Of a stretch of 32,000 nucleotides of DNA, positions 1-23,187 are shown one piece after another. The DNA comes from an uncultured Oscillospiraceae bacterium. GTDB lineage: Bacteria > Bacillota > Clostridia > Oscillospirales > Oscillospiraceae. Numbering within the stretch: position 1 is the first letter of the stretch; each line of letters begins with the position of its first letter. The notes under the pieces were generated by a model. The model was not told the origin of the DNA, ran no database searches, and worked only from the letters and a program-made list of their open reading frames with translations. The stretch is from NCBI GenBank assembly GCA_934631005.1, contig CAKTXA010000013.1, positions 28,963 through 60,962 of the forward strand, in the 5' to 3' direction. Made by a program: the position numbers and the translations under genes.

Positions 1-67
1 TCGCCGCTGCATCAAGGATACGGCAGCACGTACCTGCTTCTTCACGCTTCCCTATTCCCTTTTCACT

Positions 68-102
68 AAAAAAGGCGAGGCCCTGCGGGGCCTCGCCTTT
101 TT
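68..102. terminator. Bidirectional rho-independent terminator closing the tail/baseplate operon
   Basis: 10-bp GC-rich stem AGGCGAGGCC (73-82) / GGCCTCGCCT (89-98), flanked by an A-run (68-73) and a T-run (98-102). It begins 2 nt past the stop of the 104..670 gene. Confidence 0.8.
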
Positions 103-103
103 C

Positions 104-2440: not shown

Positions 2441-2446
2441 TTCCTC

Positions 2447-3930: not shown

Positions 3931-3933
3931 ATC

Positions 3934-5382: not shown

Positions 5383-5394
5383 CCGCTCGCCTCC

Positions 5395-6447: not shown

Positions 6448-6929
6448 TTGACCGCTCCCTTCAGAATAAAGTCCGTAAATTCCGTCTCGTCCTCGTCCGT
6501 CACGGCGTATACATACGCCTGCGCCTGCGCCCGCACCGGGCAGGTAAAGCAGTCGCTCTCCGCGTCATAGCTGCACGCGCCCACCGTGAGGCTTCCCAGC
6601 TGCACGCCCGCCGCGCCGTTTGACAGCGCCGCGACCACCTTCTCCGTCTCGGCGTAGCACGCCGCCGACCCGCCGCGCCGCGGCGCAAATACCTGCATCA
6701 GCACCTCCGCCGTCAGCTCGCAGCCATACAGCGCCGTGCGCCCGCCGTCGTCATCCTCCCGCATCCCCAGATACGAAAACTGCGCCGCCGCGCCGCTCTT
6801 TGCGCCCTGCAGGCCGACTGCCGTCACCGGCCCGGTCAGCTCCGGGGCCGTCCCCGGATAAAACTGCCGCACCACCGTCAGCCCCGCGTCCGCGAGCAGT
6901 CTACAGATCGCCCTGATCAGTTCCTGCAT
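6444..6929 (-). CDS. Tail completion / terminator-type head-tail joining protein (hypothetical)
   Basis: The track ORF 6444..7115 is trimmed to the ATG at 6929, preceded by GGGAGGAG. 161 aa, last of three small genes between the capsid and sheath genes (xkdH/I/J slots). Confidence 0.5.
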   Translation of the reverse strand: MQELIRAICRLLADAGLTVVRQFYPGTAPELTGPVTAVGLQGAKSGAAAQFSYLGMREDDDGGRTALYGCELTAEVLMQVFAPRRGGSAACYAETEKVVAALSNGAAGVQLGSLTVGACSYDAESDCFTCPVRAQAQAYVYAVTDEDETEFTDFILKGAVK

Positions 6930-7254
6930 CCGTCTCTCCTCCCGCTTCGCGCAAAAGCCCCCAGACGTAGATCGCCTCGTCCGCCAGAAACAGCCGCTCC
7001 GCCCGCTGCACGCGGTAGTCCTTCCCGCCGCAGCGCACCGCCGCGCCCTCGTCCGGCAAAACCTCCGCCGGGCCGATGTACACAGACCGCCCCCGCGGGA
7101 TCTCGCCGATGGCACGCACGCTGCGGCGCAAACTCTCCCAGCCGTTTTCCGTCACCGGCTGGATGAACGCCCGCACCGTCTGCACGCCGTCCACGCTTTC
7201 TATCTCCGCCGTGCGCCCGTAATCCGCCAAAATGCGCCCGATCAGCTCCTTCAT
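6901..7254 (-). CDS. Head-closure / head-tail adaptor protein (hypothetical)
   Basis: The track ORF 6901..7785 is trimmed to the ATG at 7254 (MKELIGRIL...), which forms an ATGA overlap with the stop of the upstream gene. 117 aa. Confidence 0.5.
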   Translation of the reverse strand: MKELIGRILADYGRTAEIESVDGVQTVRAFIQPVTENGWESLRRSVRAIGEIPRGRSVYIGPAEVLPDEGAAVRCGGKDYRVQRAERLFLADEAIYVWGLLREAGGETDAGTDQGDL

Positions 7255-7601
7255 CCGCAGGCCCCCCGGCACGAGAGCCCGCCCGCGAGAAACGGCGCCA
7301 TCAGCCGCTCCGCGGCCTGCCGCAGCGCCGCCGTGCCGGCTTTCCCCGGCGTCACCGACACCTCGCCCACGCGAAACGCCTCCACGCCGCACGCGCCGCA
7401 CGCCTCGCGGTAATTCGCCGCCGCCAGCATCGCCGCCGCGCAGGTAAAGCATTCTCCGCAGTCCTCCGCCGTCACATCCCGGCGCAGCCGGGTCAAAAGC
7501 GCCGTCTCCGCCGCCGCGCAAAGGGCCTTCAGCGCCGCGTCCTCCGCACCGGCGGCGGAAAAGCCCGCCGCCAGCGCGTAAATTTCGTCCGCCCGCGCCA
7601 C
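7251..7601 (-). CDS. Head-tail connector protein (gp6-like, hypothetical)
   Basis: 116-aa ORF starting 1 nt after the capsid gene stop, the usual slot for a connector protein. Confidence 0.5.
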   Translation of the reverse strand: MARADEIYALAAGFSAAGAEDAALKALCAAAETALLTRLRRDVTAEDCGECFTCAAAMLAAANYREACGACGVEAFRVGEVSVTPGKAGTAALRQAAERLMAPFLAGGLSCRGACG

Positions 7602-8633
7602 TCAGATCACCAGCACCTTCGCACTCTCCGGCATGATCTTGCCGAACCCGGAGATGGACGTGATCGCCGCGCGCTCCAGCTGGCGGTCGATGAGCTTGTC
7701 GTATTCCACGTTCACCTCGCCCGCCTGCACCATCTCCAGCGCATAGCGGCGGTCGAGGCCGATGAGCTTGCCCGACGGCACGCACGCCGCGCGCAGCAGC
7801 TCTGCGCCCATCGGCGCGGCCAGCTTGCCCGTGCCCTGGAAGTTCAGCCCCGTCAGCGGGTTCTGGAACTCCGTCAGCTTCAGCATCTGCACCATCGCGT
7901 CGCCCGATGCCAGCAGCGCGTTCATCGTATACGGCTCAAACTGCGACCAGAACTCCACCAGCTGCGCATACGAAAGCGTCCCCTTCGTCCCGCTCAGCGG
8001 GCTCGTGCCGATGGTCAGCACCTCGGCGGCGTTGTTATTCCCGTCGCCGTTCAGCAGCACGTCCACCGCGTCCTGCAGATGCATCTTCTGGATGTACGCG
8101 CCGATCTGGCGCAGCGTCACCGCGAACAGATCGAGCTTCTGAAAGCGGATGGCCTCATACGACGCCACCAGCATTCTCCCGCGCTTGTTGAGCTTCACCA
8201 GATTCGACTTGCTGCGGATCTCCGTCGCCGGGATGCTCGCGCCCTCGGCCACCTGCATCAGCTTCTTATCCTCCTCCGAAGCCGCGGAAAACACACTGCG
8301 GTAGTCCATCGCGTCGATGGTCGTGGTCGTTGCCACGATCTTCGGCAGCACGTCGTTCTCCTCCATCCCCTGCTTCACCGCGCGGGCGATGTACTCCGGA
8401 AACAGCACGCTCGACTCCGCCGTGCGGAAGAATTTTTCCACGGGGTCGGAATACGCCCCGCGGGCGTGGATGTCAAAGCGCTTGAGCTGACGCTGGAACG
8501 CGTCCGTCCCCTCCAGCGCCGTGCCCGCGTAGTTTTCGCTCGGGTCGAGCGACTCCAGCACCTGTGCAAAGCTCTTGCCGCTCTCGCGGTACATACCCTT
8601 TTCCAGTCTGATCGAATCAAAGCCCATGTTCAT
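7602..8633 (-). CDS. Major capsid protein (HK97-fold type)
   Basis: 343-aa ORF downstream of the protease/scaffold and decoration genes. Length and sequence character are typical of Phage_capsid-family proteins. Confidence 0.85.
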   Translation of the reverse strand: MNMGFDSIRLEKGMYRESGKSFAQVLESLDPSENYAGTALEGTDAFQRQLKRFDIHARGAYSDPVEKFFRTAESSVLFPEYIARAVKQGMEENDVLPKIVATTTTIDAMDYRSVFSAASEEDKKLMQVAEGASIPATEIRSKSNLVKLNKRGRMLVASYEAIRFQKLDLFAVTLRQIGAYIQKMHLQDAVDVLLNGDGNNNAAEVLTIGTSPLSGTKGTLSYAQLVEFWSQFEPYTMNALLASGDAMVQMLKLTEFQNPLTGLNFQGTGKLAAPMGAELLRAACVPSGKLIGLDRRYALEMVQAGEVNVEYDKLIDRQLERAAITSISGFGKIMPESAKVLVI

Positions 8634-8648
8634 TTTCTCCTTTCCGCA

Positions 8649-9017
8649 TTACAGAAACAGTCCCACGGTCTTGCCTGCCGTGTCCACGCTCACCACCAGA
8701 TGGCTTCTGCCCACCTCTGCCGGCTTCGACTCCGTCGCCGCCGCCGGCACGCGCACGCCGCTCTGCCCGTCGGCCACCAGCGCCGTAAAGCCCAGCGCCG
8801 GAGCCGTGCCCGTGTACGGCAGCTTCATAAAGCCGCCCATGCGCACGCTCGCCGTGCCGTTTCGTACCTGCGTGATCATGCCGCAGAACGCCTCGCCGCC
8901 CGCGCACGCGCCCACCGTGCCGTTCGCCGTCACCTTGCAGAGCTTGCCCTCCGCCGCGGTGTCCCCCGCGTAAAACGTCACATACCGCTCCGCGATCGCG
9001 TCAAAAGAAATTGCCAT
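8649..9017 (-). CDS. Head decoration / cement-like protein (DUF2190-type)
   Basis: The track ORF 8649..9212 is trimmed to the ATG at 9017 (MAISFDAIAERY...), preceded by GAAGGAGG. 122 aa, Gly/Ala/Thr-rich, immediately upstream of the capsid gene. Confidence 0.6.
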   Translation of the reverse strand: MAISFDAIAERYVTFYAGDTAAEGKLCKVTANGTVGACAGGEAFCGMITQVRNGTASVRMGGFMKLPYTGTAPALGFTALVADGQSGVRVPAAATESKPAEVGRSHLVVSVDTAGKTVGLFL

Positions 9018-9063
9018 TGTCCTACCTCCTTCAAAAATATGCAGCGCCGCAGCGCCATTTAGT

Positions 9064-9217
9064 AACCGATGATCTGATCGACAAGAGCTGTCGGCGAGAG
9101 GTTTTGGCCCAAATGAAAGTTTGGAAACGCAGAAATACTTTGTGTATTTCAAGTTTTCAAACTGCACAGTTGGGGCAAAAGATCCGCCGACGGCCGCAGT
9201 CGATCGGATCATCGGTT
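9064..9217 (-). repeat. Long-range inverted repeat enclosing a lower-GC insert inside the head operon
   Basis: AACCGATGATCTGATCGAC (9064-9082) pairs with GTCGATCGGATCATCGGTT (9199-9217) at 18 of 19 positions. An inner pair GCTGTCGGCG / CGCCGACGGC extends the stem. Confidence 0.6.
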
Positions 9218-9219
9218 GC

Positions 9220-10092
9220 TTACACCAGAAACGCGCTGTCCGTCTTTTTCATCGCCGTCGGGCGCTCCGCCAGCAGACACACCGGCGGATACATCGCTTC
9301 CGCCCTGCGGCCAAGGCTCTTCTCCGCCGCCTGCAGCTGCTCCGGCGTCAGGACCGACACCATCAGCTCCAAAAGCTCCTTCTCCACCGCTACGTCCGTC
9401 AGCAGCGCCAGCCGCACCACCTCGCCGCGCAGCCGCTCGCGGTACTGCCGGCCCAGCTCCGCCTGCTTGTGCAGCTGCACCCGCGCATATTCCGTCAGCT
9501 CGTCGCCCTCGCCGCGCAGGCGCTTTAACACCCCGGCCTTCCGCTGCGCGGGCACCGCCACGAACGAAAACTCATACGCATCCTGCGGCTCGCACAAAAC
9601 CGCCACGCACGTTTTCCCGCCGTATTGCCGCCCCTTCTCGTGCTCGCACGTGCCGTACTCCGCCCCGCAGATCGAGCAGAGGCTCTTTCCCATCGCGCAC
9701 CCGACCGACACCTCTTTCTTGATGCCCGCCTCGATCTCGCGGATGAGCTCCGCCGTCCTCTCCGTCCGCAGGATGTACGCCCACGCTTTGATAAAGGCCG
9801 CGCCGCTCTCGTACTCCACGCCCGTCTCAAAAATGCGCGCCAGCTGCTTCTCGCTCGACCACGTGTGGTCGGCAACGCCCGTCTTGCCCACAAACAGCTC
9901 CGCCAGCTTCCCCAGCGCGTCGGTCGCAAACCGCTCAAAATCGCGATCCACCTGATCGTCGCACAGCCGCACGGAAAAGACGTATACCTCCTCCGCGCCC
10001 AGCGGCGTCTTGGCCTGCCTGTTGATCTTCTCCAGCTGCTCCGCCGTCGGCTTTCCCGCGGTCAGAACGCCCGCCTGCTTCAAAACCTCCAT
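9220..10092 (-). CDS. Prohead protease/scaffold-type protein (XkdF-like)
   Basis: 290-aa ORF between the portal and capsid genes. The C-terminal third is coiled-coil-like (ELTEYARVQLHKQAELGRQYRERLRGEVV), as in scaffold domains. The protease function is inferred from position only. Confidence 0.55.
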   Translation of the reverse strand: MEVLKQAGVLTAGKPTAEQLEKINRQAKTPLGAEEVYVFSVRLCDDQVDRDFERFATDALGKLAELFVGKTGVADHTWSSEKQLARIFETGVEYESGAAFIKAWAYILRTERTAELIREIEAGIKKEVSVGCAMGKSLCSICGAEYGTCEHEKGRQYGGKTCVAVLCEPQDAYEFSFVAVPAQRKAGVLKRLRGEGDELTEYARVQLHKQAELGRQYRERLRGEVVRLALLTDVAVEKELLELMVSVLTPEQLQAAEKSLGRRAEAMYPPVCLLAERPTAMKKTDSAFLV

Positions 10093-10095
10093 CGT

Positions 10096-11232
10096 TTACT
10101 CCTTTCCCAGCTCCGCGCGCAGCTTTTCCGCCTGCGCGCGATACAGCGCCGCGTGCGCCTCCTCCACCGTGTCCTGCAGCGAAATGTCGTCCCACACGAT
10201 CTCCGCCTCGCCGTCAAAGCCCTCCGACCGCAGCCAGTACCGGCAGATCTTCTCCAGCACCGGCTGTACGCACCGCCGCAGCGCCCACAGCTCCGACGTC
10301 AAAAGATCCGCCTGCTGCGCGCTCATCCGCTCCGTCGACGACCAGCTCAGCCCCAGCATGAACGGCGGCAGCCCCGTCTTGGCGACGAGCTGTTCGAGAA
10401 TTTGCCGCACCGGCACCTCCGAGTCCAGCACCTGCCCGTCCGCGCCGATCACGCGAATTGCCACATCGCCCACCGCCACAAAGTCGCGCACCTCGCCGGT
10501 GCGCGTGCTACGCATCGCCTGCGACCATTCGCGTGCCATCTGCTCCGCCGCCTGCTCCGGCTGCACGCTCTCGCTTCCGGGCCTGTACACCACCGCGTAG
10601 CGCACGTTCCCTGCCCGCTCCCAGTTCGCCCCGATCGTCCGGTAAATTTTCAGCAGCACGTCCGCCAGAAATGGCATCGACGCAAACAATGACGTGCCGT
10701 AGGGATGCGCCGCGTTCGCGTTCCACGTCGAAAACAGCAGCAGCTCCTGATACGGCAGCGCCCGCTCCTGCCCGTTTTCCCACACGCACAGCTGCACCTC
10801 CAGCGGCGACGCGCCCTGCTTCACATGGACTCTGCGCACATCGCCCCAGCACACCGCCTCCAGATGCCCGCCGCGCATCACCAGCTCGCCCACCGCGCGC
10901 CCATACATCAGCAGGCTGTCCAGGTAAGCCTCCAGAAAGCTCGCGATCCCGACCTGCCCGCGCCCCACCGGCGCCGCGCGTAAAAACCGCCGCAGCCCGT
11001 CCTCCGCGCGGCGGTCTTTGCACGCCACGTCAAAGCCGCCCGTCAGCCGCACCAGCTTGCCCACCGCCGCGTCCAGGATCGGCAGCGCCGCGCGCATCGC
11101 CTCAAACATCTCCTCCTGCGCCCCGCCGAGCGCCTGCGTCTGCGCCAGCATCCCAAACGGGTTCGCCGCCTCCGTCCGCAGCTGCGCCGCCTTCGCCGCG
11201 CCCTGCACTTCCTTTTTCCGCGTAAGGATCAC
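10096..11232 (-). CDS. Portal protein
   Basis: 378-aa ORF immediately downstream of terL, with size and position typical of HK97/PBSX-type portals. Confidence 0.8.
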   Translation of the reverse strand: MILTRKKEVQGAAKAAQLRTEAANPFGMLAQTQALGGAQEEMFEAMRAALPILDAAVGKLVRLTGGFDVACKDRRAEDGLRRFLRAAPVGRGQVGIASFLEAYLDSLLMYGRAVGELVMRGGHLEAVCWGDVRRVHVKQGASPLEVQLCVWENGQERALPYQELLLFSTWNANAAHPYGTSLFASMPFLADVLLKIYRTIGANWERAGNVRYAVVYRPGSESVQPEQAAEQMAREWSQAMRSTRTGEVRDFVAVGDVAIRVIGADGQVLDSEVPVRQILEQLVAKTGLPPFMLGLSWSSTERMSAQQADLLTSELWALRRCVQPVLEKICRYWLRSEGFDGEAEIVWDDISLQDTVEEAHAALYRAQAEKLRAELGKE

Positions 11233-11244
11233 CCCTTCTTCCTT

Positions 11245-12516
11245 TTATCCGTCGCCCCGCGTCACCGCCCGCGCCGTAAAGCCGCGCGGCGTCTCCAGAA
11301 CGCCCATCACAAAATAGCGCATATCGTCCATCGCGTGGTCGTTGCGCTTTTCCACCCGGTCGCGCGTCCCGCCGCGCTCCCAAACGTACAGATCCATCTC
11401 CCGCAAACAGTCCACACACTCCGCGCAGATCACGATCCGCCCCGCCCGCAGCGCGTCCGCCGTCCGTCGGATGCCGCTGAGCACATCGTTGTCCGCCTTT
11501 TCCACCACCCAGCCCTGCCGCCGCAGCGTCTGAATAAAGCTCGCCGCCGACGGGTCGACGATCACCTTCGCGATCTCCCGCCCGCCTGCCAGCCTTGCCA
11601 GCGCCCGTGCGTACTCCTCATCCGTCATCTGCCGCCCCTCGCGCCGCGAGTCAAAGTAAAATTCCTGCACCCGGTACCACGCGCCGTCCCGCCGTCCCCA
11701 CAGCCCGAACGACGCCGGATTCACCGTCCCGTAGTCGCACGAGATCACCCATTCGGCAAAGCCCTCCTTCGGCGCGGGCGCGGCCAGCGCCGTGTCGTAA
11801 AAGTCATACACCCGGCCCTCCGCCGCCGCCCACAGTCCCTGCACGAACCGCCGGTAAAACACCCCCGCGTACATCCGCGCATACCGCCTGCGGATCTGCG
11901 GCGAGAGCGCGGGGTTGTCCTGCATCGTAAAATGCAGATGCAAACAGTTCATCTCCTCCGCCCGCACGATCCACTGCCGGTAGAACCAATGCTGCGGCCC
12001 CTCGGGATTGCAGTTGAACCACAAGCGGCTGCCCGCGTCCGAGCACCGCGCGCACGCCTGCTCCACGAAGGAACGCGGCATCAGCGCCGCCTCGTCCAGA
12101 AGCACGCCCGCCAGCGTCACGCCCTGAATGAGCGCCGCCGACCGCTCATCGTTCCCGCCGAACAGCAGAAAATCATTCTCCCGTCCCGCGAACCGCACGC
12201 GGTACCCGCCGTCCGCCGTCCTTTCAAACCGCATCCCCAGCGCCCGCAGGACCGGCACGCCGTCCGCCAAAACGTTCCGCCGCAGCGCGCCCACCGTCCG
12301 GCCGCACAGCGCAAAGCGCCTGCCGGAGAATTCGCTCATCGCCCACAGGAAAAACCCCAGCGTCATCGCGAACGTTTTTCCCGACCGGATGGCCCCGTCG
12401 CACACGATCGCCTCATACCGGCAGTCCGGCCCGCCCGCGCGCCACCAGAGCATCGCCCGCCGCTGCTTGGGCGAAAATCCGCCGCTACGCGTCATCGTCC
12501 GCATCCTCGTCCTCAT
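11245..12516 (-). CDS. Terminase large subunit (PBSX XtmB-type)
   Basis: 423 aa. Walker A-like CDGAIRSGKT, Walker B-like LLDEA, and a C-terminal nuclease region (VIVDPSAA ... HAMDDMRY). Alternative in-frame starts at 12504 and 12495 overlap the terS stop. Confidence 0.9.
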   Translation of the reverse strand: MRTRMRTMTRSGGFSPKQRRAMLWWRAGGPDCRYEAIVCDGAIRSGKTFAMTLGFFLWAMSEFSGRRFALCGRTVGALRRNVLADGVPVLRALGMRFERTADGGYRVRFAGRENDFLLFGGNDERSAALIQGVTLAGVLLDEAALMPRSFVEQACARCSDAGSRLWFNCNPEGPQHWFYRQWIVRAEEMNCLHLHFTMQDNPALSPQIRRRYARMYAGVFYRRFVQGLWAAAEGRVYDFYDTALAAPAPKEGFAEWVISCDYGTVNPASFGLWGRRDGAWYRVQEFYFDSRREGRQMTDEEYARALARLAGGREIAKVIVDPSAASFIQTLRRQGWVVEKADNDVLSGIRRTADALRAGRIVICAECVDCLREMDLYVWERGGTRDRVEKRNDHAMDDMRYFVMGVLETPRGFTARAVTRGDG

Positions 12517-16071: not shown

Positions 16072-16132
16072 AACTTCAAAACTCCTTTGTGAGTATATTT
16101 TCATCGTCCCAAAGCCCGCCCTGTCGCCACGT

Positions 16133-16216
16133 TTCGTCGTAACGTAGGGGAGGGGCTTGCCCCTCCCGCGGCTTCCCCTTGAGGGGAAGCTGTCGGCGAA
16201 GCCGACTGATGAGGAG
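16133..16216. repeat. Hairpin-repeat fragment R2 (left arm only) inside the ileS 5' UTR
   Basis: TTCGTCGTAACGTAGGGGAGGGGCTTGCCCCTCCC, then CTTCCCCTTGAGGGGAAG, GTCGGCGAAGCCGAC and CTGATGAGG, after which similarity to the family ends. Confidence 0.85.
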
Positions 16217-16255: not shown

Positions 16256-16497
16256 ACAAAAACCGCCCCGAACCAACGTTCAGGGCGGCCATGACCGCGG
16301 TACCACCTGAATTCCCGTAAAAAACGGGCACTCCGTCCTCCTGTAACGGGAAGGCCCCGTCGCGCCTAGTTGGCAAAGCCGTTCAGCGCGCTGCTCCAAG
16401 GGGATATTCCGGCCGCCCCACGACCGCCTCACACCACCCCGGCGGCTCTCTGCACGCGGAAAAAGACCGTACTCGTCCTTGTCATCGCATAATTTCG
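16256..16497 (-). promoter_or_regulatory. T-box leader riboswitch controlling ileS
   Basis: On the minus strand: GCGATGA...AGTA (stem I base), AGAGAG...GGTGGTG, the T-box sequence AATTCAGGTGGTACCGCGG (about 16296-16314), then terminator CCGCCCTGAA/TTCGGGGCGG + TTTTTG (16256-16288). An AUC triplet lies in the candidate specifier region (about 16403-16405), but that assignment is uncertain. Confidence 0.85.
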
Positions 16498-16570: not shown

Positions 16571-17030
16571 TCCCCCTGTAGGGGCCGATGACCATATCGG
16601 CCCGCACACCGCACCGCCGGTCACGCCGTAGGGGCGGGGTCCTACCCCGCCCGCACCCGACCGACCACCGCCGCACCCTCGATCCTTCGTCGTAACGTAG
16701 GGGAGGGGCTTGCCCCTCCCGCCGGTAGGCAGCTGTGGCTTTTGCACGCACCGGCGGGTGGTACGCAGCCCATACCTTCCCCTGGGGGAAGGTGCCCCCG
16801 AAGGGGGCGGATGAGGGCCGGGGAGCACTGAAACATAGCTTTGCATGCTCAGCAAAACGCAACTGCTCCCCGATCCTCATCAGTCGCCTGCGGCGACAGC
16901 TTCCCCCAGGGGAAGCTATGGGGTGCCTACGTTTCGCCGCTGCGTCGGGGATTCGTCAGCGCGTGCTAACTTATTCACTATTCACTCTTCACTATTCCTT
17001 CAAATCGCCCCTCCCCTACATTACGACGAA
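16571..17030. repeat. Hairpin-repeat cluster R3 (three GTAG-headed hairpin types plus a composite element)
   Basis: GTAGGGGCCGATGACCATATCGGCCC (16578-), GTAGGGGCGGGGTCCTACCCCGCCC (16628-), GTAGGGGAGGGGCTTGCCCCTCCC (16697-). Also the central hairpin GATGAGGGCCGGGGAGCA...TGCTCCCCGATCCTCATC and the right end GCCCCTCCCCTACATTACGACGAA (to 17030). Confidence 0.9.
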
Positions 17031-17620: not shown

Positions 17621-17688
17621 CAGTTTTTCGGGAAAAGGTAAGCAAAAAATAATAAATTACAATTTTTTCGGCGTTTTGCCGAAAAATC

Positions 17689-19053
17689 TCACCGCAAGAA
17701 GGACCGATACGCCCGCGCCTTTCCCGGCGTATACGGCTGATAGCGCAGCCGGATGTCCACCGACGGCGACTTTTTCAGGATGCTCCGCTCGTGCGTGAAT
17801 GTGTCAAAGCTCTTTTTGCCGTGATAGCTGCCCATGCCGGACGCGCCCACGCCGCCGAACGGCAGGTGCGGATTGGAAAGCTGCACCAGCGTGTCGTTCA
17901 TGCACCCGCCGCCAAACGAGCACGTCGCCAGCACCCGCTGGCGGATGGCGCAGTCGCGCGTAAACAGATACAGCGCCAGCGGCTTTTCGTGCGCCGTGAT
18001 GTACGAAATGCACTCCCGGATGTGCGTGTACGGGATGACCGGGAGGATCGGCCCGAAGATCTCCTCCTGCATCACCGGGCTCTCCAGACCTGCCGGGCAG
18101 ATGACCGTCGGCTCGATGCGCCGCGTTTTTTCGTCGCACCCGCCGCCGATGACGATGTTCTGCCCCTCCAGAAGCCCGCGCAGGCGGGCAAAATGCCGCG
18201 CATTTACAATGACCGGCAGCTGCGACAGGTCGCCGCCCGGGAAAAACTCCGCCAGCGCGCGGCGATATTCCGTCAAAAACCGCTCCAGAACCGGCTCCCG
18301 CACGAACGCGTAGTCTGGCGCCACGCACGTCTGCCCCGCGTTCGTCACCTTGCCGAACGCGATGCGCCGCGCCGCCGTGCGAATGTCCGCCGTGTCGTCC
18401 ACGATCACGGGGCTCTTGCCGCCCAGCTCCAGCGACACCGGCGTCAGATGCTCCGCCGCCGCCTGCATCACCTGCTTGCCCACCGCGGACGAGCCGGTGA
18501 AGAAAATATAGTCGAACCGCTCGTGCAGCAGCGCCTGATTTTCCGCGCGCCCGCCCTCGATCACCGCCGCGTGCTCCGCCGGGAACGCTGCCTCGATCAC
18601 CGCGCGGATGGCGCGGCTGGCGTTGGGCGCGTAGGCCGACGGCTTCACGATCGCGCAGTTCCCCGCCGCGATGGCCCCCGCCAGCGGCGCCAGGCACAGC
18701 TGGATGGGATAGTTCCACGGCGCCATGATCAGCACCACGCCATACGGCTCCGGCGCAATGTAGCTCTTCGCCGGAAAATGCATCAGCGGCGTCGGCACGC
18801 GCCGCACGCGCGACCACCGGCGCACATGGCGCAGCTGGTCGCGGATCTCCGTCAGCACCAGCCCGATCTCGGTCATGTACGTCTCGGCGGCAGGCTTGCC
18901 AAAGTCGGCCAGCATCGCCGCCTCCAGCTGCGGCGTCTGCGCCCGCACCGCGTCATAAAGCCGCCGCAGCGCCGCCATGCGATACGGCACCGACCGCGTC
19001 TTGCCGCTGAGATAACACGCACGCTGCTTCTCCAAAAGCTCGGAAATTTCCAT
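17689..19053 (-). CDS. NAD(P)-dependent aldehyde dehydrogenase (class-3-like ALDH family)
   Basis: 454 aa. ALDH motifs ELGGKSP and catalytic-Cys region NAGQTCVAPDY, and a C-terminal region typical of ALDH3-type enzymes. Confidence 0.85.
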   Translation of the reverse strand: MEISELLEKQRACYLSGKTRSVPYRMAALRRLYDAVRAQTPQLEAAMLADFGKPAAETYMTEIGLVLTEIRDQLRHVRRWSRVRRVPTPLMHFPAKSYIAPEPYGVVLIMAPWNYPIQLCLAPLAGAIAAGNCAIVKPSAYAPNASRAIRAVIEAAFPAEHAAVIEGGRAENQALLHERFDYIFFTGSSAVGKQVMQAAAEHLTPVSLELGGKSPVIVDDTADIRTAARRIAFGKVTNAGQTCVAPDYAFVREPVLERFLTEYRRALAEFFPGGDLSQLPVIVNARHFARLRGLLEGQNIVIGGGCDEKTRRIEPTVICPAGLESPVMQEEIFGPILPVIPYTHIRECISYITAHEKPLALYLFTRDCAIRQRVLATCSFGGGCMNDTLVQLSNPHLPFGGVGASGMGSYHGKKSFDTFTHERSILKKSPSVDIRLRYQPYTPGKARAYRSFLR

Positions 19054-19114: not shown

Positions 19115-19897
19115 TTATTCCTCCGGCGCGTTCAAAAGCGTCCGGCAAAGCTCCAGAATTTCCGGCTGGTCGAGCGAGTTGGCAAACTCCACCCGTCCCG
19201 GCTGGGCTTGCTGCGTGAGCAGGTTTTCACCGGCAAGACGGCTTTTCAGCTGCTGCGCCACGCCGTCCGCGCCGTCCAGAATTTCGACGTGCCGTCCCGC
19301 GATGCGCCGGATGGCCCCCGCGAGGAACGGATAATGCGTGCAGCCCAGCACGATCGCGTCCACCGGCACGTTGCGGTACGGCTCCAGCTTGTCGAGCAGA
19401 TACCCCTCCACCGCGCCGCCGGATGTCACGCCCTGCTCCACGAATTCCATCAGCCCCGGGCACGGCACCGGGATGATCTCCGCCCGCGGCTGGAGCTGCG
19501 CCTGCAGCGCCAGGAATTTTTCCTCCTTCAGCGTCATCGGCGTCGCCATCACCAGAATGCGCCCGCCCGCGTGCCGCTCCACCGCCGGCTTGATGGCCGG
19601 CTCCGTGCCGATCACGATGAGGTCGGGATACCGCTCGCGCAGTGCCGAAATGGCGGCGGACGTGGCCGTATTGCACGCCACGACCAGCGCCTTGATGCCC
19701 CGCTCGATCAGCGGCGCCACCGCGCCGAACGTCAGCGTGCGCACCTCATCCAAACTCCGCACGCCGTAGGGTGCGTGGAGCGAGTCACCGAAATAGAGGT
19801 AGTCCTCGCACGGCAGCAGCCGCACGCTGCGGCGCAGAATGCTGATGCCGCCCACGCCGGAGTCAAAAAACGCGATCGGCCAGTCCCAGCGCGCCAT
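19115..19897 (-). CDS. murI: Glutamate racemase
   Basis: Motifs FFDSGVGGISIL, VVACNTAT and LGCTHYPF. Start trimmed to the ATG at 19897 (MARWDWPIAFFDSG), preceded by GGGGAGGGG. Confidence 0.9.
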   Translation of the reverse strand: MARWDWPIAFFDSGVGGISILRRSVRLLPCEDYLYFGDSLHAPYGVRSLDEVRTLTFGAVAPLIERGIKALVVACNTATSAAISALRERYPDLIVIGTEPAIKPAVERHAGGRILVMATPMTLKEEKFLALQAQLQPRAEIIPVPCPGLMEFVEQGVTSGGAVEGYLLDKLEPYRNVPVDAIVLGCTHYPFLAGAIRRIAGRHVEILDGADGVAQQLKSRLAGENLLTQQAQPGRVEFANSLDQPEILELCRTLLNAPEE

Positions 19898-19964
19898 ACG
19901 AGCCCCTCCCCTCGGATTTTCTCCCATTATACCACGCCCACCCCCGCACGTAAAGCCGATTTTC

Positions 19965-20440
19965 GCCGCCCCCTACCGACCGCCGCCGCACCCCCGCCCC
20001 TTCGTCGTAACGTAGGGGAGGGGCGGTTTGAAGTAAAAGTGAATAGTGAAAAGTGAAGAGGTGAATTCTTAGTCGTAATGTAGGGGAGGGGCTTGCCCCT
20101 CCCGCCGGTACGCGCCATCGTTCTTTTGCGGCAGTGCCGCTTTGCTGAGGGCCCCATAGCTTCCCCTGGGGGAAGCTGTCGCCGCAGGCGACTGATGAGG
20201 GTCGGGGAGCAGTTGCGTTTTGGCACAACTGCTAAGCTATCCGTCAATGCTCCCCGGCCCTCATCCGCCCCCTTCGGGGGCACCTGTCCCTACCCTCTTT
20301 GTCCCTTCGGGACATTTCCCCCTGATAGGGGGAATCGGCCCCGAGGGGAAGGCAAGGGGTGCATTCCGCTCGCTGATGCGTGCAAAAGCCACAGTTGCCA
20401 ACCAGCGGGAGGGGCAAGCCCCTCCCCTACATTACGACTA
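19965..20440. repeat. Hairpin-repeat cluster R4: half-element with AGTGAAN heptad run plus a full TIR-bounded composite (20069-20440)
   Basis: Left TIR TTAGTCGTAATGTAGGGGAGGGGCTTGCCCCTCCCGC (20069-), right TIR GCGGGAGGGGCAAGCCCCTCCCCTACATTACGACTAA (to 20440). The interior aligns module by module with the reverse complement of R5. Confidence 0.9.
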
Positions 20441-20465
20441 AATAATCACTTTTCCACTCTTCACC

Positions 20466-20506
20466 CAAAAAACGCAGCACGCCCGGGGCTTCTCTCCCCG
20501 GGCGTG
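20466..20506 (-). terminator. Terminator of the Spo0A_C-domain gene
   Basis: Stem CACGCCCGGGG (20478-20488) / CCCCGGGCGTG (20496-20506), followed on the minus strand by CTGCGTTTTTTGGG. Confidence 0.8.
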
Positions 20507-20517
20507 CGTGCCGGCCA

Positions 20518-20883
20518 TTATTCTTTATTTTCCGGCCGGAGATGCACTGCCAAAATCGCCAGAAAGCGCTCCGGCGCCTGCGGCTGCGGGACGGCCCGTC
20601 CGGTCAGCGTGCGCAGCAGCGCGGGATTTTCATGCCACGCCGCTGCGGATGCCAGCCGGATGCTGCCCTCCACGCTCTTGGCCGGGATGTCGTACTGCGC
20701 CGCCACCTGCGGATAAAGCCACCGCGATGGGATGCGCAGCCGCTCCGGCTGCTTTGCCGCCAGATACAGTGCATATGCCGTGTGAAAAAAGTGTGTGCTG
20801 CCCGCCCGCAGTCCCAGGCGGTACAGCAGATCATACGCCTCCGAAAGGTCACCAATGTCACTCAGGTCGCCAGCGTCGTTCAT
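20518..20883 (-). CDS. Stand-alone Spo0A C-terminal (DNA-binding) domain protein, no receiver domain
   Basis: The 121-aa protein aligns by eye with the B. subtilis Spo0A effector domain: LYPQVAAQYDIPAKSVEGSIRLASAAAW versus [28 protein letters not shown], and ERFLAILAVHLR versus SEFIAMVADKLR. Confidence 0.8.
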   Translation of the reverse strand: MNDAGDLSDIGDLSEAYDLLYRLGLRAGSTHFFHTAYALYLAAKQPERLRIPSRWLYPQVAAQYDIPAKSVEGSIRLASAAAWHENPALLRTLTGRAVPQPQAPERFLAILAVHLRPENKE

Positions 20884-20948
20884 GGTCGGATCGTGGACAT
20901 CGGTTTGAAATTTTCGTCTTGATCTGCTGCAGGATTACAGTCCTCCAC
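20880..20948 (-). CDS. Candidate 22-codon leader ORF translationally coupled to the Spo0A_C-domain gene
   Basis: GGAGGGGG, 5 nt, then GTG at 20948, encoding VEDCNPAADQDENFKPMSTIRP. Its TGA overlaps the downstream ATG (ATGA, 20880-20883). The downstream ATG has no Shine-Dalgarno sequence of its own. Confidence 0.3.
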   Translation of the reverse strand: MEDCNPAADQDENFKPMSTIRP

Positions 20949-20996
20949 GATTTCCCCCTCCTTTTCCCACATCCTAGAATACGGCAAATTTTACCG

Positions 20997-21470
20997 TTCG
21001 GCATGTCGTCGTTTCGGCCACGCCCGCCGAAGCTTCGGCAGAGTGCCGAAATCGCGTCACCGCGCCGAAAAGCCGCTCCCGCTGCCGACGCCCCTGCACT
21101 TCTCTGCCCGCCCTGTGCCGAAACTTCGTCACCGTTTCTGCCTGTAATGTTCCGCTGACCGTCTATTCTGCCGGTTTTCCGTCACTGTTTCCGCTCATCC
21201 GCTGCCAATGATTCGGCAGCGGCCGAATAATCGCCCAAGGTGCCGAAGTTTCGTCACCGTTCCCCCTCGCAATGTTCCGATAAACCGTCCATACTTCCGC
21301 ATCTCCGTCACTTTCTCCGTCCATTCTCTGCCGATATTTCGTCACAGCGCCGAAATTTCGCCGCCGTGTCGTAACTCTGTACATTCTGTCAGAGTTTCGG
21401 CACCTGCCAAGATCCCGCCGTAGTGCCGAAAAGCTGGCCATTGTGCCGGGAAGCTGACGCAAGTGCCGAA
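20997..21470. promoter_or_regulatory. Array of 0A-box-like heptamers (TGNCGAA), candidate binding-site cluster
   Basis: 12 perfect TGNCGAA matches. Forward: 21044, 21116, 21241, 21424, 21464. Reverse (TTCGNCA): 20997, 21034, 21125, 21212, 21250, 21338, 21396. Several one-mismatch copies also occur. Confidence 0.6.
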
Positions 21471-21485
21471 ACTCCGCCAAAAATC

Positions 21486-21516
21486 AGAAAAACCGGGAGG
21501 GTTTCTCCCCTCCCGG
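21486..21516 (-). terminator. tadA terminator
   Basis: Stem CCGGGAGGG (21493-21501) / CCCTCCCGG (21508-21516), followed on the minus strand by TTTTTCTGATTTTT. Confidence 0.75.
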
Positions 21517-21529
21517 TGCCGGTATTCTG

Positions 21530-22003
21530 TCATTCCTCCGCCGTCTCGCCCCTGCGCTTTTCGCGCAGGTGCCGAAAAAATGTACGCAGCGCCGCCGCGC
21601 AGTCCTCCTCCAGCACGCCCTGCACGACCTCCGGCTTCTGGCTGCACGGCAGCAGAAACAGGTCGATGGCCGACCCGCAGCAGCCGTTCACCGGCTCCTT
21701 CGCGCCGTACACCACGCGCGGGATGCGCGCGTTGATGATCGCCCCGGCGCACATCGGGCACGGCTCCAGCGTCACATACAGCGTGCACTGCCACAGCCGC
21801 CAGCCGCCAAGTGTTCGGCACGCCTCGGCGATCGCCTCGATCTCGGCGTGCGCCAGCGCGCTCTTCGCGCCCTCGCGGCGGTTGCGCCCGCGGCCCACGA
21901 TCTCATCGCCGCGCACCACCACGCACCCGACCGGCACCTCGCCCTCACCCGCCGCCGCCTGCGCCAGCGCCAGCGCCTCGCGCATGAACCGTTCGTCCTC
22001 CAT
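21530..22003 (-). CDS. tadA: tRNA-specific adenosine deaminase
   Basis: CDA-fold zinc motifs HAEIEAI and PCPMCAGA, a size of 157 aa and an N-terminus (FMREALALA) typical of TadA. Confidence 0.9.
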   Translation of the reverse strand: MEDERFMREALALAQAAAGEGEVPVGCVVVRGDEIVGRGRNRREGAKSALAHAEIEAIAEACRTLGGWRLWQCTLYVTLEPCPMCAGAIINARIPRVVYGAKEPVNGCCGSAIDLFLLPCSQKPEVVQGVLEEDCAAALRTFFRHLREKRRGETAEE

Positions 22004-22042: not shown

Positions 22043-22071
22043 ATTATAGTATGCCGCCCGCCCCGCGTCAA
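22043..22071 (-). promoter_or_regulatory. Sigma-A-type promoter for tadA
   Basis: On the minus strand: TTGACG (22066-22071), a 17-nt spacer, TATAAT (22043-22048). It overlaps the XRE gene stop. Confidence 0.5.
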
Positions 22072-22418
22072 CCGAGCAGCGCCGCCAGCAGCATCGCCAG
22101 TTCCCGCGCGTCCAGCGGCCGCGCCGCGCCGTCGGCGCTCACAAGCGTCAGCCTCCCGTCCAGCTTCTGCAGCGCCTGCTGCGCCACGCCGCACAGCGCC
22201 GCAAAATCCCGCGGCTGCGCCTGCCCCGTCAGCAGAAAATCCGTCGTCGCTCCCAGCGCCGCCGCCAGCTTCACCAGCGTCTCGCCGTCCGGCTCCCGCC
22301 GCCCCTGCTCATACATCCCGATCGCGCTCGGGCTCACGCCCACCTGCGCCGCCAGCGCCTGCTGGCTGAGCTTTTTCTGCCGCCGCAGGGCGGCCAGCCG
22401 TGCACCAAGCATCCCCAT
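22068..22418 (-). CDS. XRE-family helix-turn-helix transcriptional regulator
   Basis: N-terminal HTH_3 pattern LRRQKKLSQQALAAQVGVSPSAIGMYEQGRREPDGETLVKLAAALG. AGGAGG is upstream. The gene is divergent from the plus-strand operon. Confidence 0.85.
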   Translation of the reverse strand: MGMLGARLAALRRQKKLSQQALAAQVGVSPSAIGMYEQGRREPDGETLVKLAAALGATTDFLLTGQAQPRDFAALCGVAQQALQKLDGRLTLVSADGAARPLDARELAMLLAALLG

Positions 22419-22445
22419 TTCCTCCTAATTTTTGTAAATTTATGC

Positions 22446-22474
22446 TTGACATCACACACATCGTGTAGTATGCT
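22446..22474 (+). promoter_or_regulatory. Sigma-A-type promoter for the plus-strand regulatory operon
   Basis: TTGACA (22446-22451), a 17-nt spacer, TATGCT (22469-22474), in the AT-rich divergent intergenic region. Confidence 0.5.
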
Positions 22475-22488
22475 TTGACTGTAAATAA

Positions 22489-22734
22489 ATGGTATTCCAT
22501 ATTCCGAACGGGGGGGTCAACACGAAAAAATCACGGTCCCGGGCGCAGATGCCGGACGCGCCCGCCAGCCTGCCGTCGCGGTGGTGCAGCCTGTGCGGCG
22601 GCGAAATCTACGCGGGCGATAATTATTACGAGCTGGACGGCCATGCCGTCTGCCCTGACTGCCTGCCCGCCTTTGCGCGGGGCTATTTTCTCGGCGATCT
22701 GCGCGTGGCCATGCCGCCGCGCCTTCTGCCATGA
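22489..22734 (+). CDS. Small zinc-ribbon protein (CxxC...CxxC), hypothetical
   Basis: Motif CSLCGGEIYAGDNYYELDGHAVCPDC. The start is uncertain (22489 or 22549) and neither candidate has a strong RBS. The stop overlaps the next start (ATGA at 22731). Confidence 0.5.
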   Translation: MVFHIPNGGVNTKKSRSRAQMPDAPASLPSRWCSLCGGEIYAGDNYYELDGHAVCPDCLPAFARGYFLGDLRVAMPPRLLP

Positions 22735-22964
22735 CGCTGCGCGAGCTGTCGCAGGACTACCGCGCCGCGGCGCAGCTGCTCCGGCAGCGGCTGCGCGAGC
22801 TGCGTCAGCGGGAAAAGGTCGCCACCGACGCGGACGAGCGCTTCTGGCTCTCGCGCCGCAAGCTGGCGCTGGGCGAGATGCTCCGGCAGATGAACGAGCT
22901 GGCGGAGTTAACTGAGCGCTACTATGAAAGGGGCTACTGGCGCAGTGAAAAATACACTCTATGA
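22731..22964 (+). CDS. Small helical hypothetical protein
   Basis: 77 aa, Arg/Leu/Glu-rich and predicted helical, translationally coupled to the upstream ORF. It ends ...RYYERGYWRSEKYTL. Confidence 0.55.
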   Translation: MTLRELSQDYRAAAQLLRQRLRELRQREKVATDADERFWLSRRKLALGEMLRQMNELAELTERYYERGYWRSEKYTL

Positions 22965-23187
22965 CGGCTACCGCGGCCCGCGCATGAGCCGCGAGATGCT
23001 CATGGCGCGCGTGCAGAACGTGATCGACAACGAGCTGACCGACAAGCAGCGCCGCGCGCTGGAGGATTATTACCTGGCCCGCAAGACCATCCCCGCGCTC
23101 GCCGCGGAGTACGGCGTGAACAAATCCACCGTCAGCCGCACCCTCAAGCGCGCCGAAGCCCGCCTGCGCCGGTTCCTGAAATACTAA
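22924..23187 (+). CDS. Sigma-70 region-4-type HTH protein (YlxM/ArpU-like, no region 2)
   Basis: LTDKQRRALEDYYLARKTIPALAAEYGVNKSTVSRTLKRAEARLRRFL matches the region-4 HTH pattern. The true start may be 22945 (GTG) or 22984 (ATG). Confidence 0.7.
   Translation: MKGATGAVKNTLYDGYRGPRMSREMLMARVQNVIDNELTDKQRRALEDYYLARKTIPALAAEYGVNKSTVSRTLKRAEARLRRFLKY

Follow-up and report, generated by a model that had tools for sequence, protein, structure and literature searches.

A close-packed array of inverted 0A-type half-sites next to a receiver-less Spo0A effector-domain gene: a candidate expansion of a two-site promoter operator

The switch that defines endospore formation is generally taken to be Spo0A, gated by phosphorylation, whose classical targets (abrB, as well as the complex of structure PDB ID:1LQ1, according to the description of the entry) carry tandem, head-to-tail 0A boxes with a repeat of approximately 10 bp. 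The protein contacts positions G2, C4 and G5 of its box, and its isolated DNA-binding domain binds the targets without phosphorylation (PMC3485338); the C-terminal domain also serves as a marker taken to be unique to Spo0A (PMC6136694). Stand-alone “Spo0A C-terminal domain-containing proteins” occur in Oscillospiraceae, usually encoded in two-gene XRE-Spo0A_C operons, and in phages (phrog_24603); we have counted 439 representatives of the stand-alone family at 50% identity (E <= 1e-3) and at least 990 clusters at 90% identity (E <= 1e-10), and our literature search has returned neither a characterised stand-alone Spo0A_C protein nor an array such as the one described here. A further group of systems, related to the present one by analogy of mechanism and not by membership, consists of the iterated-operator and titration arrays, e.g. 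pSK41 parC and the DnaA-titrating arrays of the datA type, where many close-packed sites are spaced by about two helical turns and the copy number changes by whole units.

Here, we have analysed a 32-kb stretch of DNA (32,000 nucleotides, referred to as “the window”) from an uncultured Oscillospiraceae bacterium, in which the gene of a stand-alone Spo0A_C protein, the orphan gene, is preceded by approximately 20 palindromic sites, close-packed at 19-21 bp and reaching approximately 510 bp upstream. Judged from the sequence, a two-site control element, common to related genes in other species, seems to have been expanded tenfold in the array. The locus is chromosomal, located between tadA (21530-22003, assigned by Pfam) and murI, with an identical context in many metagenome contigs; the other neighbours are an XRE gene, an aldehyde dehydrogenase gene, a carD-like gene and ileS. 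The features of the locus are listed in Table 1.

Table 1. Positions of the array and of the elements of the orphan Spo0A_C transcription unit in the window.
Feature	Position	Strand	Remarks
Terminator-like hairpin and T-run	20477..20507	-	12-pair stem, 11 G-C, then TTTTTT
121-aa stand-alone Spo0A_C (Spo0A effector-domain) gene	20518..20883	-	Pfam PF08769
22-codon upstream ORF (GTG...TGA), MEDCNPAADQDENFKPMSTIRP*	20880..20948	-	stop codon overlaps the ATG of the gene
Shine-Dalgarno AAGGAGG	20957..20963	-	read from the sequence; 8 nt ahead of the upstream-ORF GTG; conserved in the module alignment
Candidate -10 element TATTCT	20976..20981	-	consensus match; fixed 22 nt from the proximal site in six lineages
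Exact half-site TGCCGAA at the -35 place (approx. -34 to -28)	20997..21003	-	position inferred from the -10 assignment
Conserved two-site operator	21004..21040		sites 21004-21019 and 21025-21040, with a 5-bp gap between them
Three further close-packed sites	21044..21098		starts 21044, 21063, 21083; 19-20 bp apart
Central block	21115..21344		approx. 125-bp internal duplication (copies at 21115, 21240)
Distal block, seven units of approx. 19-20 bp	21348..21479		starts 21348, 21367, 21387, 21405, 21424, 21444, 21464
Terminator-like hairpin of upstream tadA	21492..21517	-	bounds the array

An earlier interpretation, made from the letters of the window (the sequence-only reading), had described the product of the orphan gene as a Spo0A effector domain that lacks the receiver, and Pfam, structure alignment and predicted fold agree on this assignment. 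The Pfam score is 47.1 bits against a cut-off of 25, with residues 18-114 aligned to profile positions 3-103 of 104, and the phmmer alignment with PDB entries 1FC3 and 1LQ1 extends over the full length of the 121-aa protein. The AF2 model (pLDDT 86, pTM 0.80) has the six-helix effector fold with a helix-turn-helix, as in these two structures; in the Foldseek comparison with the PDB, the seven best matches are Spo0A C-domain chains (1FC3, 1LQ1; probability 1.00, TM 0.69-0.78, with 0.73-0.78 among the top ones), followed by matches with E > 2. The identity to Spo0A C-domains is 22-25%, and the nearest homologue of the protein is 56% identical. With the TIGR02875 equivalog profile (cut-off 200), the score is 27.6 bits and the match is limited to profile positions 154-260; the N-terminal receiver (REC) with the phospho-acceptor Asp is absent and the ORF is not extendable upstream, and hence, unlike Spo0A, the window protein has no phosphorelay input. 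Its recognition helix reads V71-E72-G73-S74-I75-R76 against the family motif V-E-R-x-I-R: the Glu and the second Arg are kept, and Gly73, which is present in all strains, takes the place of an Arg conserved in at least 90% of the family. In the recognition helix of B. subtilis Spo0A, the counterpart of Gly73 is presumably Arg214 (in the numbering that we assume for that sequence), a residue that we take to have a role in base contact, so that Gly stands against Arg at this aligned position. The search of the protein with PADLOC has returned no defence-system match.

Twelve exact TGNCGAA heptamers are located within 20997-21470, where approximately 0.3-0.4 are expected; their starts (20997, 21034, 21044, 21116, 21125, 21212, 21241, 21250, 21338, 21396, 21424 and 21464) are those given in the sequence-only reading, without exception. 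The enrichment over shuffled sequence, which had been proposed as a check, is evident: the window contains 39 heptamer matches against 19.0 +/- 3.7 in dinucleotide-preserving shuffles, none of 100 shuffles reaching 39. The remainder of the window has 27 heptamers in 31.5 kb (approximately 0.41 per 474 bp), and at this rate the Poisson probability of finding 12 in 474 bp is about 3e-14. When one mismatch is allowed, 27 half-sites (12 exact and 15 with one mismatch, in approximately 500 bp) are found in 20960-21540, against 6.8 expected at the rate of the rest of the window.

The half-sites face each other head-to-head, with TGNCGAA at position x and TTCGNCA at position x+9, and the actual repeat unit is thus a 16-bp palindrome, TGCCGAAnnTTCG(G/T)CA; all nine 16-mers of the window that match it with at most two mismatches lie inside the gap 20884-21529. 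The sequence-only reading is also right about three convergent pairs (21116-21131, 21241-21256, 21329-21344) and about a palindrome located at 21026-21039. The half-site keeps G2, C4 and G5 of the TGNCGAA heptamer, so the view that these are classical 0A boxes is right about the core; it does not extend to the layout, since the tandem, head-to-tail arrangement with a repeat of approximately 10 bp is absent and the boxes form 16-bp inverted pairs. The resemblance of the locus to Spo0A and its boxes lies in the fold of the effector domain, the core of the half-site and the presence of a box at or near the -35 position of a promoter, and the difference lies in approximately 20 inverted-repeat sites as opposed to one to four tandem direct repeats. 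Of the known palindromic operators compared with the motif (cre, LexA/Cheo box, parS, NBS, Rex and CodY), not one matches its core CGAA-N2-TTCG.

Within the central block, which is purine-rich on the sense strand of the gene, both copies of the duplication open with a perfect palindrome (21116-21131 and 21241-21256), and the other sites are at 21169, 21203, 21221, 21295 and 21329. Global helical phasing of the CG dinucleotides across the array is not significant; the spacing is local close packing, not a single coherent lattice. Two further heptamer locations that had been associated with the cluster do not belong to it: the copy at 21570 falls within the tadA coding sequence and is unrelated to the array, and the copies at 17667-17683 form a hairpin immediately adjoining the aldehyde dehydrogenase gene at its 3' end, which looks like a terminator because of this position and because its halves are divergent, opposite to the orientation in the array.

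The gap between the orphan gene and tadA is 646 bp long (20884-21529), as had been reported, but it is not fully non-coding: it contains the 22-codon upstream ORF (20948-20880), whose stop codon overlaps the ATG of the orphan gene (ATGA) and to which the only good Shine-Dalgarno belongs. The unit is monocistronic, with its terminator-like hairpin located just past the stop codon of the gene. The promoter lacks a good -35 element, and the centres of the two proximal operator sites would be located at approximately -42.5 and -63.5, as inferred from the candidate -10 element. Upstream, the hairpin of tadA is predicted to insulate the array from tadA read-through; lying between this terminator and the inferred promoter that follows it, the array is probably not transcribed.

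An identical promoter module has been found in six lineages (the window, L010/L012, L014, L022, L032 and L050), whose orphan proteins are 40-56% identical. Its layout is site, 4-5 bp, site, 22 nt, TAT(T/C)CT, 8-14 nt, AAGGAGG, GTG, with the palindromes (pattern xGNCGAAnnnnCGNCx, 16 bp each) 20-21 bp apart; the module of the window scores 18/20. A strict scan of 644 kb for the composite module has given five matches, all upstream of Spo0A_C genes and always on the strand of the gene, corresponding to the window, L010/L012, L022 and L050; L014 and L032 have been added by a separate scan. The nearest relatives of the window protein thus share with it both the two-site module and the overlap between the stop of the upstream ORF and the start of the gene. 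In L010 and L022, an XRE gene takes the place of the upstream ORF, also overlapping the Spo0A_C start, and the module precedes the XRE gene; in the window, unlike the usual members of the family, the XRE partner is reduced to the 22-codon ORF. No other regulator gene is present in the unit in four of the six lineages (the window, L014, L032 and L050), and the orphan is therefore the only locally encoded candidate for the binder.

The array itself is confined to the species-level lineage of the window and hence is not a trait of the family. No comparable array occurs among approximately 55 homologous loci, which have at most two sites each (L009-L049 by heptamer count and an unbiased scan of 7-mer multiplicity; L050-L053, L065-L070 and L205-L209 by palindrome and composite-module scans); the expectation that orthologous orphan genes are always accompanied by an array has consequently failed, and the array as such does not accompany the family. 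The proposal of a cognate regulator with its binding sites gains independent support, however, from the two promoter-proximal sites, which are part of the module found ahead of related orphan genes in the five other lineages. Since the two-site module is shared and the array is not, the array of the window appears to be an expansion of a conserved operator, from two to approximately 20 sites.

An apparent array at L039 (GCACGAA, ten times) has proved to be an unrelated tandem repeat within a protein-coding sequence, at a distance of 2.8 kb; equally unrelated are the densest loci among the matches listed for metagenome contigs (at least 120), L108 and L097, which are AT-rich, eukaryote-like TGCCGAATATTCGGCA repeats. 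The scan of viral contigs with the array pattern has given 11 chance-level matches and no clusters, and the search of genome contigs with the window protein as single query no match; the alignment of 41 sequences is too diverse for pattern design. No homologue locus shares the neighbours tadA or murI, and the sister taxa identified through IleRS (93%, 86% and 82% identity) are rearranged around ileS.

Our leading explanation, in which we have about even confidence, is that a Spo0A-fold protein uses the cluster as an array of operators, which has arisen by tandem expansion of the two-site promoter operator of the subfamily; the most likely mechanism, as far as sequence comparison can suggest one, would be autoregulation by the orphan protein, bound as a symmetric dimer. 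The enrichment of the motif, its palindromic unit, the fold, the conserved module and the expansion with its polymorphism have been shown here; we infer which protein binds, from adjacency and fold only, as well as the sign of the regulation and any role of the distal sites. Several observations speak against the explanation: Gly73 in place of the near-invariant Arg of the recognition helix, the divergent helix of L010 beside a similar operator, the lack of visible constraint on the distal sites and of global phasing, and the confinement of the array to one species-level lineage. In the proposed mechanism, the 121-aa protein would need no phosphorylation, because the receiver domain is absent, and would bind the 16-bp palindromes as a symmetric dimer. 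The two invariant proximal sites would put it in contact with RNA polymerase, next to a promoter without a good -35 element, in a placement like that of class-II-type activators and of Spo0A at the promoters that it activates. Most likely, the gene controls its own transcription in a feedback loop, probably a positive one, and its translation would be coupled to the upstream ORF with the sole Shine-Dalgarno. The approximately 17 extra sites would load more of the same protein and may sharpen or buffer the feedback, as a local sink or a cooperative platform, or may have little effect.

In gut Oscillospiraceae, Spo0A effector domains without a receiver form a large family, still uncharacterised, of which the locus is a member. 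For one of its subfamilies, a concrete and testable candidate DNA target is now available, namely the conserved operator of two palindromes based on the 0A core. With the operator of an autoregulator multiplied tenfold, the expansion to 20 sites would constitute a natural experiment, and the array could be used as a high-avidity probe for binding by these proteins or by genuine Spo0A.

The comparison of strains distinguishes the proximal from the distal part of the array. The proximal 150 bp are invariant among eight distinct strain sequences, and the operator 21004..21040 is invariant in all strains examined; the orphan gene has ten variable sites among eight strains, eight of them at third codon positions, which indicates purifying selection. 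The distal array, by contrast, changes more rapidly than synonymous sites do (19% variable columns among the eight strain sequences, against 6.6-10% at nearby third codon positions of the flanking genes), and its polymorphism does not avoid the core motif positions (odds ratio 0.79, p = 0.49 with eight sequences; p = 0.06 with four); individual distal sites are thus not visibly constrained. At the distal end of the distal block, a 40-bp indel, corresponding to two units, separates strains, which together with the internal duplication of 125 bp shows that the array grows by duplication of units.

These observations, along with the restriction of homologous loci to two sites at most and the lack of global phasing, are what would be expected if only two to five proximal sites were functional and the distal 400 bp or so were a neutral, unstable by-product of duplication or slippage, too young to have decayed. 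We regard this as possible but somewhat unlikely; it concerns the distal part only and overlaps there with the operator-array explanation. Against neutrality, 12-16 perfect heptamers are kept in each of 13 strain sequences despite their divergence, and several strain differences turn weaker half-sites into consensus half-sites in other strains; taken together, these suggest turnover with the density maintained, or gene conversion. Approximately 20 high-quality sites would, moreover, bind protein whether selected or not, so that some titration effect is physically likely.

A different reader of the boxes, which we consider unlikely, would be the full-length, phosphorylated Spo0A of the host, with the orphan gene in the Spo0A regulon, the array acting as a hypersensitive promoter or as a decoy that titrates Spo0A~P, and the orphan protein perhaps competing. 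A 0A box in place of the -35 element resembles the Spo0A-activated promoters of Bacillus. The operator core CGAA is kept throughout the module-bearing lineages although the recognition helices differ (AVRSIY in L010, VEGSIR in the window, VERNIR in the others); the similar operator of L010 next to its divergent helix makes it less certain that helix and operator belong together, and would suit a conserved binder from outside the locus, e.g. host Spo0A. The half-site is, furthermore, the canonical 0A core with G2, C4 and G5 intact (PMC3485338). These arguments are opposed by the absence of spo0A from the 32-kb window and by the symmetric inverted repeats with a half-site offset of 9 bp, in place of the tandem boxes of 1LQ1 and abrB. 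Other subfamilies, in addition, have different upstream CGAA/TTCG palindromes with different spacing, e.g. CACGAAGnnnnCTTCGTG in viral contigs, which a single host Spo0A would not explain and which are expected if the operators co-evolve with the proteins of the family. If the orphans do compete with Spo0A at 0A boxes, they would influence the sporulation, and hence the transmission, of abundant gut commensals.

The array may also be a titration device, soaking up a fixed number of Spo0A-fold dimers (of the orphan, possibly also of host Spo0A~P) before the proximal operator fires, although we attach a rather low probability to this proposal. If it is true, the sporulation or dormancy decision of uncultured gut Clostridia would have a sharp threshold, tunable between strains in copy steps of 40 bp. 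On a wider scale, phosphorylation-independent regulation at 0A-type boxes would have a whole layer that is so far unstudied, made up of over 1000 receiver-less Spo0A_C proteins.

It is very improbable that an unrelated transcription factor, for example an XRE-family HTH protein, binds the palindromes, as might be proposed from the two-gene XRE-Spo0A_C operon that is usual in the family and from the position of the module ahead of the XRE gene in L010 and L022: the window, L014, L032 and L050 have the module without an XRE gene in the unit, the XRE gene of the window (22068-22418) shows no homology to the XRE partners of the family at E < 1e-5, and the motif fits the 0A core and no known XRE operator. 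We give hardly any credence to the repeats serving for something other than operators, be it for partition (in the manner of a centromere), for replication (as iterons), as coding sequence or as structured RNA, even though close-packed repeats of approximately 20 bp resemble plasmid centromeres such as pSK41 parC and ORFs of 105 aa and 71 aa overlap the array, since the locus is chromosomal, neither on a mobile replicon nor adjacent to an NTPase gene and with no partition or replication gene nearby (so that the partition platform once proposed is also unsupported, and the array, unlike the iterated arrays mentioned above, adjoins a promoter and the gene of its presumed binder), 1-bp indels between strains break the 105-aa frame, and Rfam 15 matches the window outside the array only, at a single T-box leader (16278-16494).

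The 646-bp gap upstream of the orphan gene (20884-21529) contains 12 exact TGNCGAA heptamers between positions 20997 and 21470, a count that the sequence-only reading had given and that our recount reproduces exactly; its convergent heptamer pairs and its GCCGAAGCTTCGGC palindrome are also located where it had placed them. The enrichment over shuffled sequence, a check that it had proposed, is borne out: on both strands of the 32-kb window, 39 copies occur versus 19.0 +/- 3.7 in dinucleotide-preserving shuffles, none of which reached 39. Since the 27 copies outside the array are spread over 31.5 kb (approximately 0.41 per 474 bp), the local excess is approximately 30-fold, and the Poisson probability of the 12 clustered copies (12 of the 39), calculated from the window counts, is approximately 3e-14. 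When one mismatch is permitted, 27 half-sites are found at 20960-21540 versus 6.8 expected.

The repeat unit of the array is a 16-bp inverted repeat, TGCCGAAnnTTCG(G/T)CA, rather than the heptamer alone. Nine 16-mers fit TGNCGAANNTTCGNCA with at most two mismatches (at 21025, 21044, 21116, 21203, 21241, 21329, 21348, 21387 and 21464) and none in the rest of the 32-kb window; the sites have also been scored by a position-weight-matrix scan, and approximately 20 units occupy the gap once weaker copies are included. The order of the array is one of local close packing, with no single coherent periodicity over its whole length, and its central block is purine-rich on the sense strand of the orphan gene. 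A further copy, claimed in a hairpin at 17667-17683 upstream of carD, lies outside the array: this short hairpin (TTTTTTCGGCGTTTTGCCGAAAAAT, 17660-17690), at the 3' end of the aldehyde dehydrogenase gene, has divergent half-sites (TTCGGC...GCCGAA) and is, therefore, terminator-like.

Features of the orphan Spo0A_C gene and of the gap upstream of it
Feature	Position	Details
Terminator-like hairpin of the orphan gene	20477-20507	
Orphan Spo0A_C gene	20518-20883	121 codons; Pfam Spo0A_C
uORF (minus strand)	20880-20948	22 codons, GTG...TGA; GTG at 20948
Shine-Dalgarno AAGGAGG	20957-20963	sole one; serves the uORF
TATTCT, inferred -10	20976-20981	reverse complement
Module spacer, 22 nt		includes exact TGCCGAA at the would-be -35 position
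Module sites	21025-21040 and 21004-21019	
Proximal block	21004-21098	centre-to-centre 19-21 bp (16-bp sites, 3-5-bp linkers)
Central block	copies at 21115 and 21240	~125-bp internal duplication, from repeat comparison
Distal block	21329-21479	centre-to-centre 19-21 bp (16-bp sites, 3-5-bp linkers)
tadA terminator-like hairpin	21492-21517	borders the gap on the tadA side

The comparison of 13 strain sequences (8 of them distinct), with 12-16 perfect heptamers each in 645-688 bp, has revealed that the two ends of the array evolve differently. The proximal ~150 bp, comprising the promoter, the two-site operator and the next sites, are invariant, versus variation at 6.6% of third codon positions in the orphan gene and 10% in tadA; the proximal operator is therefore under strong constraint. 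In the distal array, 19% of the columns are variable, without a deficit of changes at the core motif positions (odds ratio 0.79, p = 0.49), and a 40-bp insertion, two units exactly, is present at the distal end in three strains; the distal array is, therefore, unstable, gaining and losing whole units, and its sites turn over without visible constraint on each. That the distal copies are neutral products of duplication, a reading that overlaps with the one we prefer, is a possibility of some weight, although we consider it the less probable one.

The 121-aa protein scores 47.1 bits against Pfam Spo0A_C (cut-off 25) and can be aligned over its full length with the crystal structures of the Spo0A effector domain, 1FC3 and 1LQ1; the 1FC3/1LQ1 structures are also the only PDB fold matches of its AlphaFold2 model (pLDDT 86; probability 1.00, TM 0.69-0.78), the match ranked after them having E > 2. 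Since a receiver domain is lacking and the score on the Spo0A equivalog model is 27.6 bits versus the 200 required, it is a stand-alone effector domain and not Spo0A, as had been read from the sequence with regard to the missing receiver. Eight of the 10 sites that vary among strains are third codon positions, and the gene is therefore under purifying selection. The recognition helix reads V-E-G-S-I-R, versus V-E-R-x-I-R in at least 90% of the family and in Spo0A; the glycine, Gly73 (codon 73, 20665-20667), is carried by all strains of the species and, in the numbering that we assume, aligns with Arg214 of Bacillus subtilis Spo0A, a DNA-contacting residue. It is pure speculation that Gly73 may be tied to the expansion of the sites, with a weaker affinity per site being offset by avidity.

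An exhaustive search without a profile, over 1.8 billion representatives, has returned 439 relatives at E <= 1e-3, the best only 56% identical and nearly all 105-170 aa long, i.e. stand-alone proteins, while a profile search has returned at least 990 clusters at E <= 1e-10; the named ones are Oscillospiraceae proteins called "sporulation protein" or "Spo0A C-terminal domain-containing protein". The phage family phrog_24603 also matches, and a few copies are located on viral contigs. The usual context is a two-gene operon, where a small XRE-family HTH protein precedes Spo0A_C with overlapping stop and start codons, amid ordinary chromosomal genes. Spo0A_C has been treated as a domain unique to Spo0A and as a marker for it (PMC6136694), and we have found no description of stand-alone Spo0A_C proteins in the literature; the protein of the window belongs to an annotated but uncharacterised family of these.

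An array beside orthologous orphan genes, which the sequence-only reading had proposed to look for, is absent: approximately 55 homologous loci (40 taken from genomes, 8 reached through protein look-ups and 7 on viral contigs) contain no comparable cluster, in TGNCGAA and any-7-mer cluster scans of L009-L049 and palindrome and module scans of the remaining loci. The array is, therefore, not a conserved partner of the gene family. The searches have returned no orthologue with an identity between 56% and 98%, and sister taxa with 82-93% identical IleRS show no synteny; the gene-plus-array unit is thus confined to a single species-level lineage, an uncultured human-gut "Clostridiales bacterium" present in many Hadza and other stool assemblies. 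An apparent array in locus L039 (7140-7560) is a coding tandem repeat of ~122 bp, GCACGAA-rich, whose minus strand would encode a repetitive acidic protein (LHETESEFPDRALPETHESKSEP...) and which is unrelated to that of the window. Clusters of TGCCGAATATTCGGCA-type palindromes in two metagenome contigs with AT-rich flanks (L108 1-130, L097 560-750) are probably eukaryotic or transposon repeats, with an identical core palindrome in an unrelated setting.

What the nearest relatives share is a smaller module. In loci L010/L012, L014, L022, L032 and L050, whose proteins are 40-56% identical to that of the window, the top-scoring palindrome pair of the whole locus lies directly upstream of the gene or operon, and all align with the promoter-proximal segment of the window in the order 16-bp site, 4-5 bp, 16-bp site, exactly 22 nt, TAT(T/C)CT, 8-14 nt, AAGGAGG, GTG. 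When both strands of 48 loci (644 kb) were scanned with a strict composite pattern, the matches fell solely at module places, always on the strand of the gene; L014 and L032 pass when a 20-bp site spacing is permitted. If TATTCT is the -10 element, the sites would be centred at inferred positions near -42.5 and -63.5, an arrangement known from activators in contact with RNA polymerase; a good -35 hexamer is absent from the window module. The window array is thus an expansion, from two sites to twenty, of a conserved operator; both operator and expansion appear to be undescribed. The operator seems to vary with subfamily, since viral XRE-Spo0A_C operons (L205, L206, L209) carry a different CGAA/TTCG palindrome, CACGAAGnnnnCTTCGTG, twice, ~230-290 bp upstream of the Spo0A_C match; after it comes TTCGACA, the canonical 0A box in reverse, at the -35 position of a promoter-like TCGACA-17-TTATAA site.

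The ATG of the orphan gene has no Shine-Dalgarno sequence and overlaps the TGA of the uORF, as ATGA; this overlap, together with the sole Shine-Dalgarno being that of the uORF, implies a probable translational coupling. A full XRE gene occupies the slot of the uORF in L010 and L022, with an identical type of overlap, and there is a weak resemblance between its N-terminus (MEKTNHLSDNL / MERNNHLSDNL) and that of the uORF (MEDCNPAADQD); the uORF itself may be what a deletion has left, retained for coupling. In L050, the closest homologue, an out-of-frame SD-GTG ORF also runs into the gene start.

We predict, with about even confidence, that the palindromes are bound by a Spo0A-fold protein, for which the most economical candidate is what the adjacent gene encodes, with autoregulation: in four of the six lineages the unit encodes no other regulator, the protein has the effector fold of Spo0A, and the half-site keeps the three bases that Spo0A reads. 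Spo0A domains without the receiver bind DNA constitutively (PMC3485338). A symmetric dimer would sit on each palindrome, the proximal pair would autoregulate the orphan gene, probably positively, and the extra sites would load more dimers, either as a local sink or as a platform for cooperativity. The system would operate as Spo0A does at 0A boxes, but with a protein that is not Spo0A and with sites arranged otherwise than the classical tandem ones. That the reader of the sites is instead the Spo0A~P of the host is rather unlikely: the CGAA core is conserved though the orphan helices diverge (e.g. AVRSIY in L010), and Gly73 also favours it, but the inverted-repeat geometry and the subfamily-specific spacings argue against it. 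Binding by an XRE-type or other factor is improbable. Least credible of all is a centromere, origin, coding repeat or RNA: the array matches no Rfam family, and it is non-coding, because single-base indels between strains break its longest overlapping ORF. The locus offers a well-defined and testable way into a large family of regulators that is still unstudied, but the array is lineage-specific and its distal part possibly neutral.

GC-rich multi-hairpin REP/MITE-like elements (e.g. GTAGGGGAGGGGCTTGCCCCTCCC and CCTTCCCCTGGGGGAAGG) fill three intergenic regions in both orientations (16098-16215, 16650-17030 and 19966-20464), with spurious ORFs that share peptides. The carD-aldh-murI block is framed by copies in inverted orientation, which match over up to 114 nt (83%) and 71 nt (99%). 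In L002 (6866-8510) and L059 (2247-2822; cf. window 19115-19927), the place of murI downstream of the Spo0A_C gene is taken by ACT and DUF711 genes or a uracil-DNA glycosylase, and since this neighbour differs among strains, the elements beside the orphan gene appear to be a rearrangement hotspot. Upstream of ileS is a T-box leader (16278-16494, minus strand; Rfam RF00230, 118 bits), and a minus-strand prophage or tail-like cluster (1-12516; baseplate J, gp44-like hub, tail sheath, capsid, large terminase) ends just short of ileS. At 22068-23187, an RstR/DicA-like XRE repressor-like gene is divergent from three small genes, encoding an 81-aa Cys-rich protein (phrog_10625/4331 match), a 77-aa protein without a family and a sigma-70 region-4/YlxM-like protein of 87 aa; in L044 (53-551), the last two also have homologues, ~3.5 kb away from one of Spo0A_C, a hint that they may be loosely associated or have a mobile origin in common.
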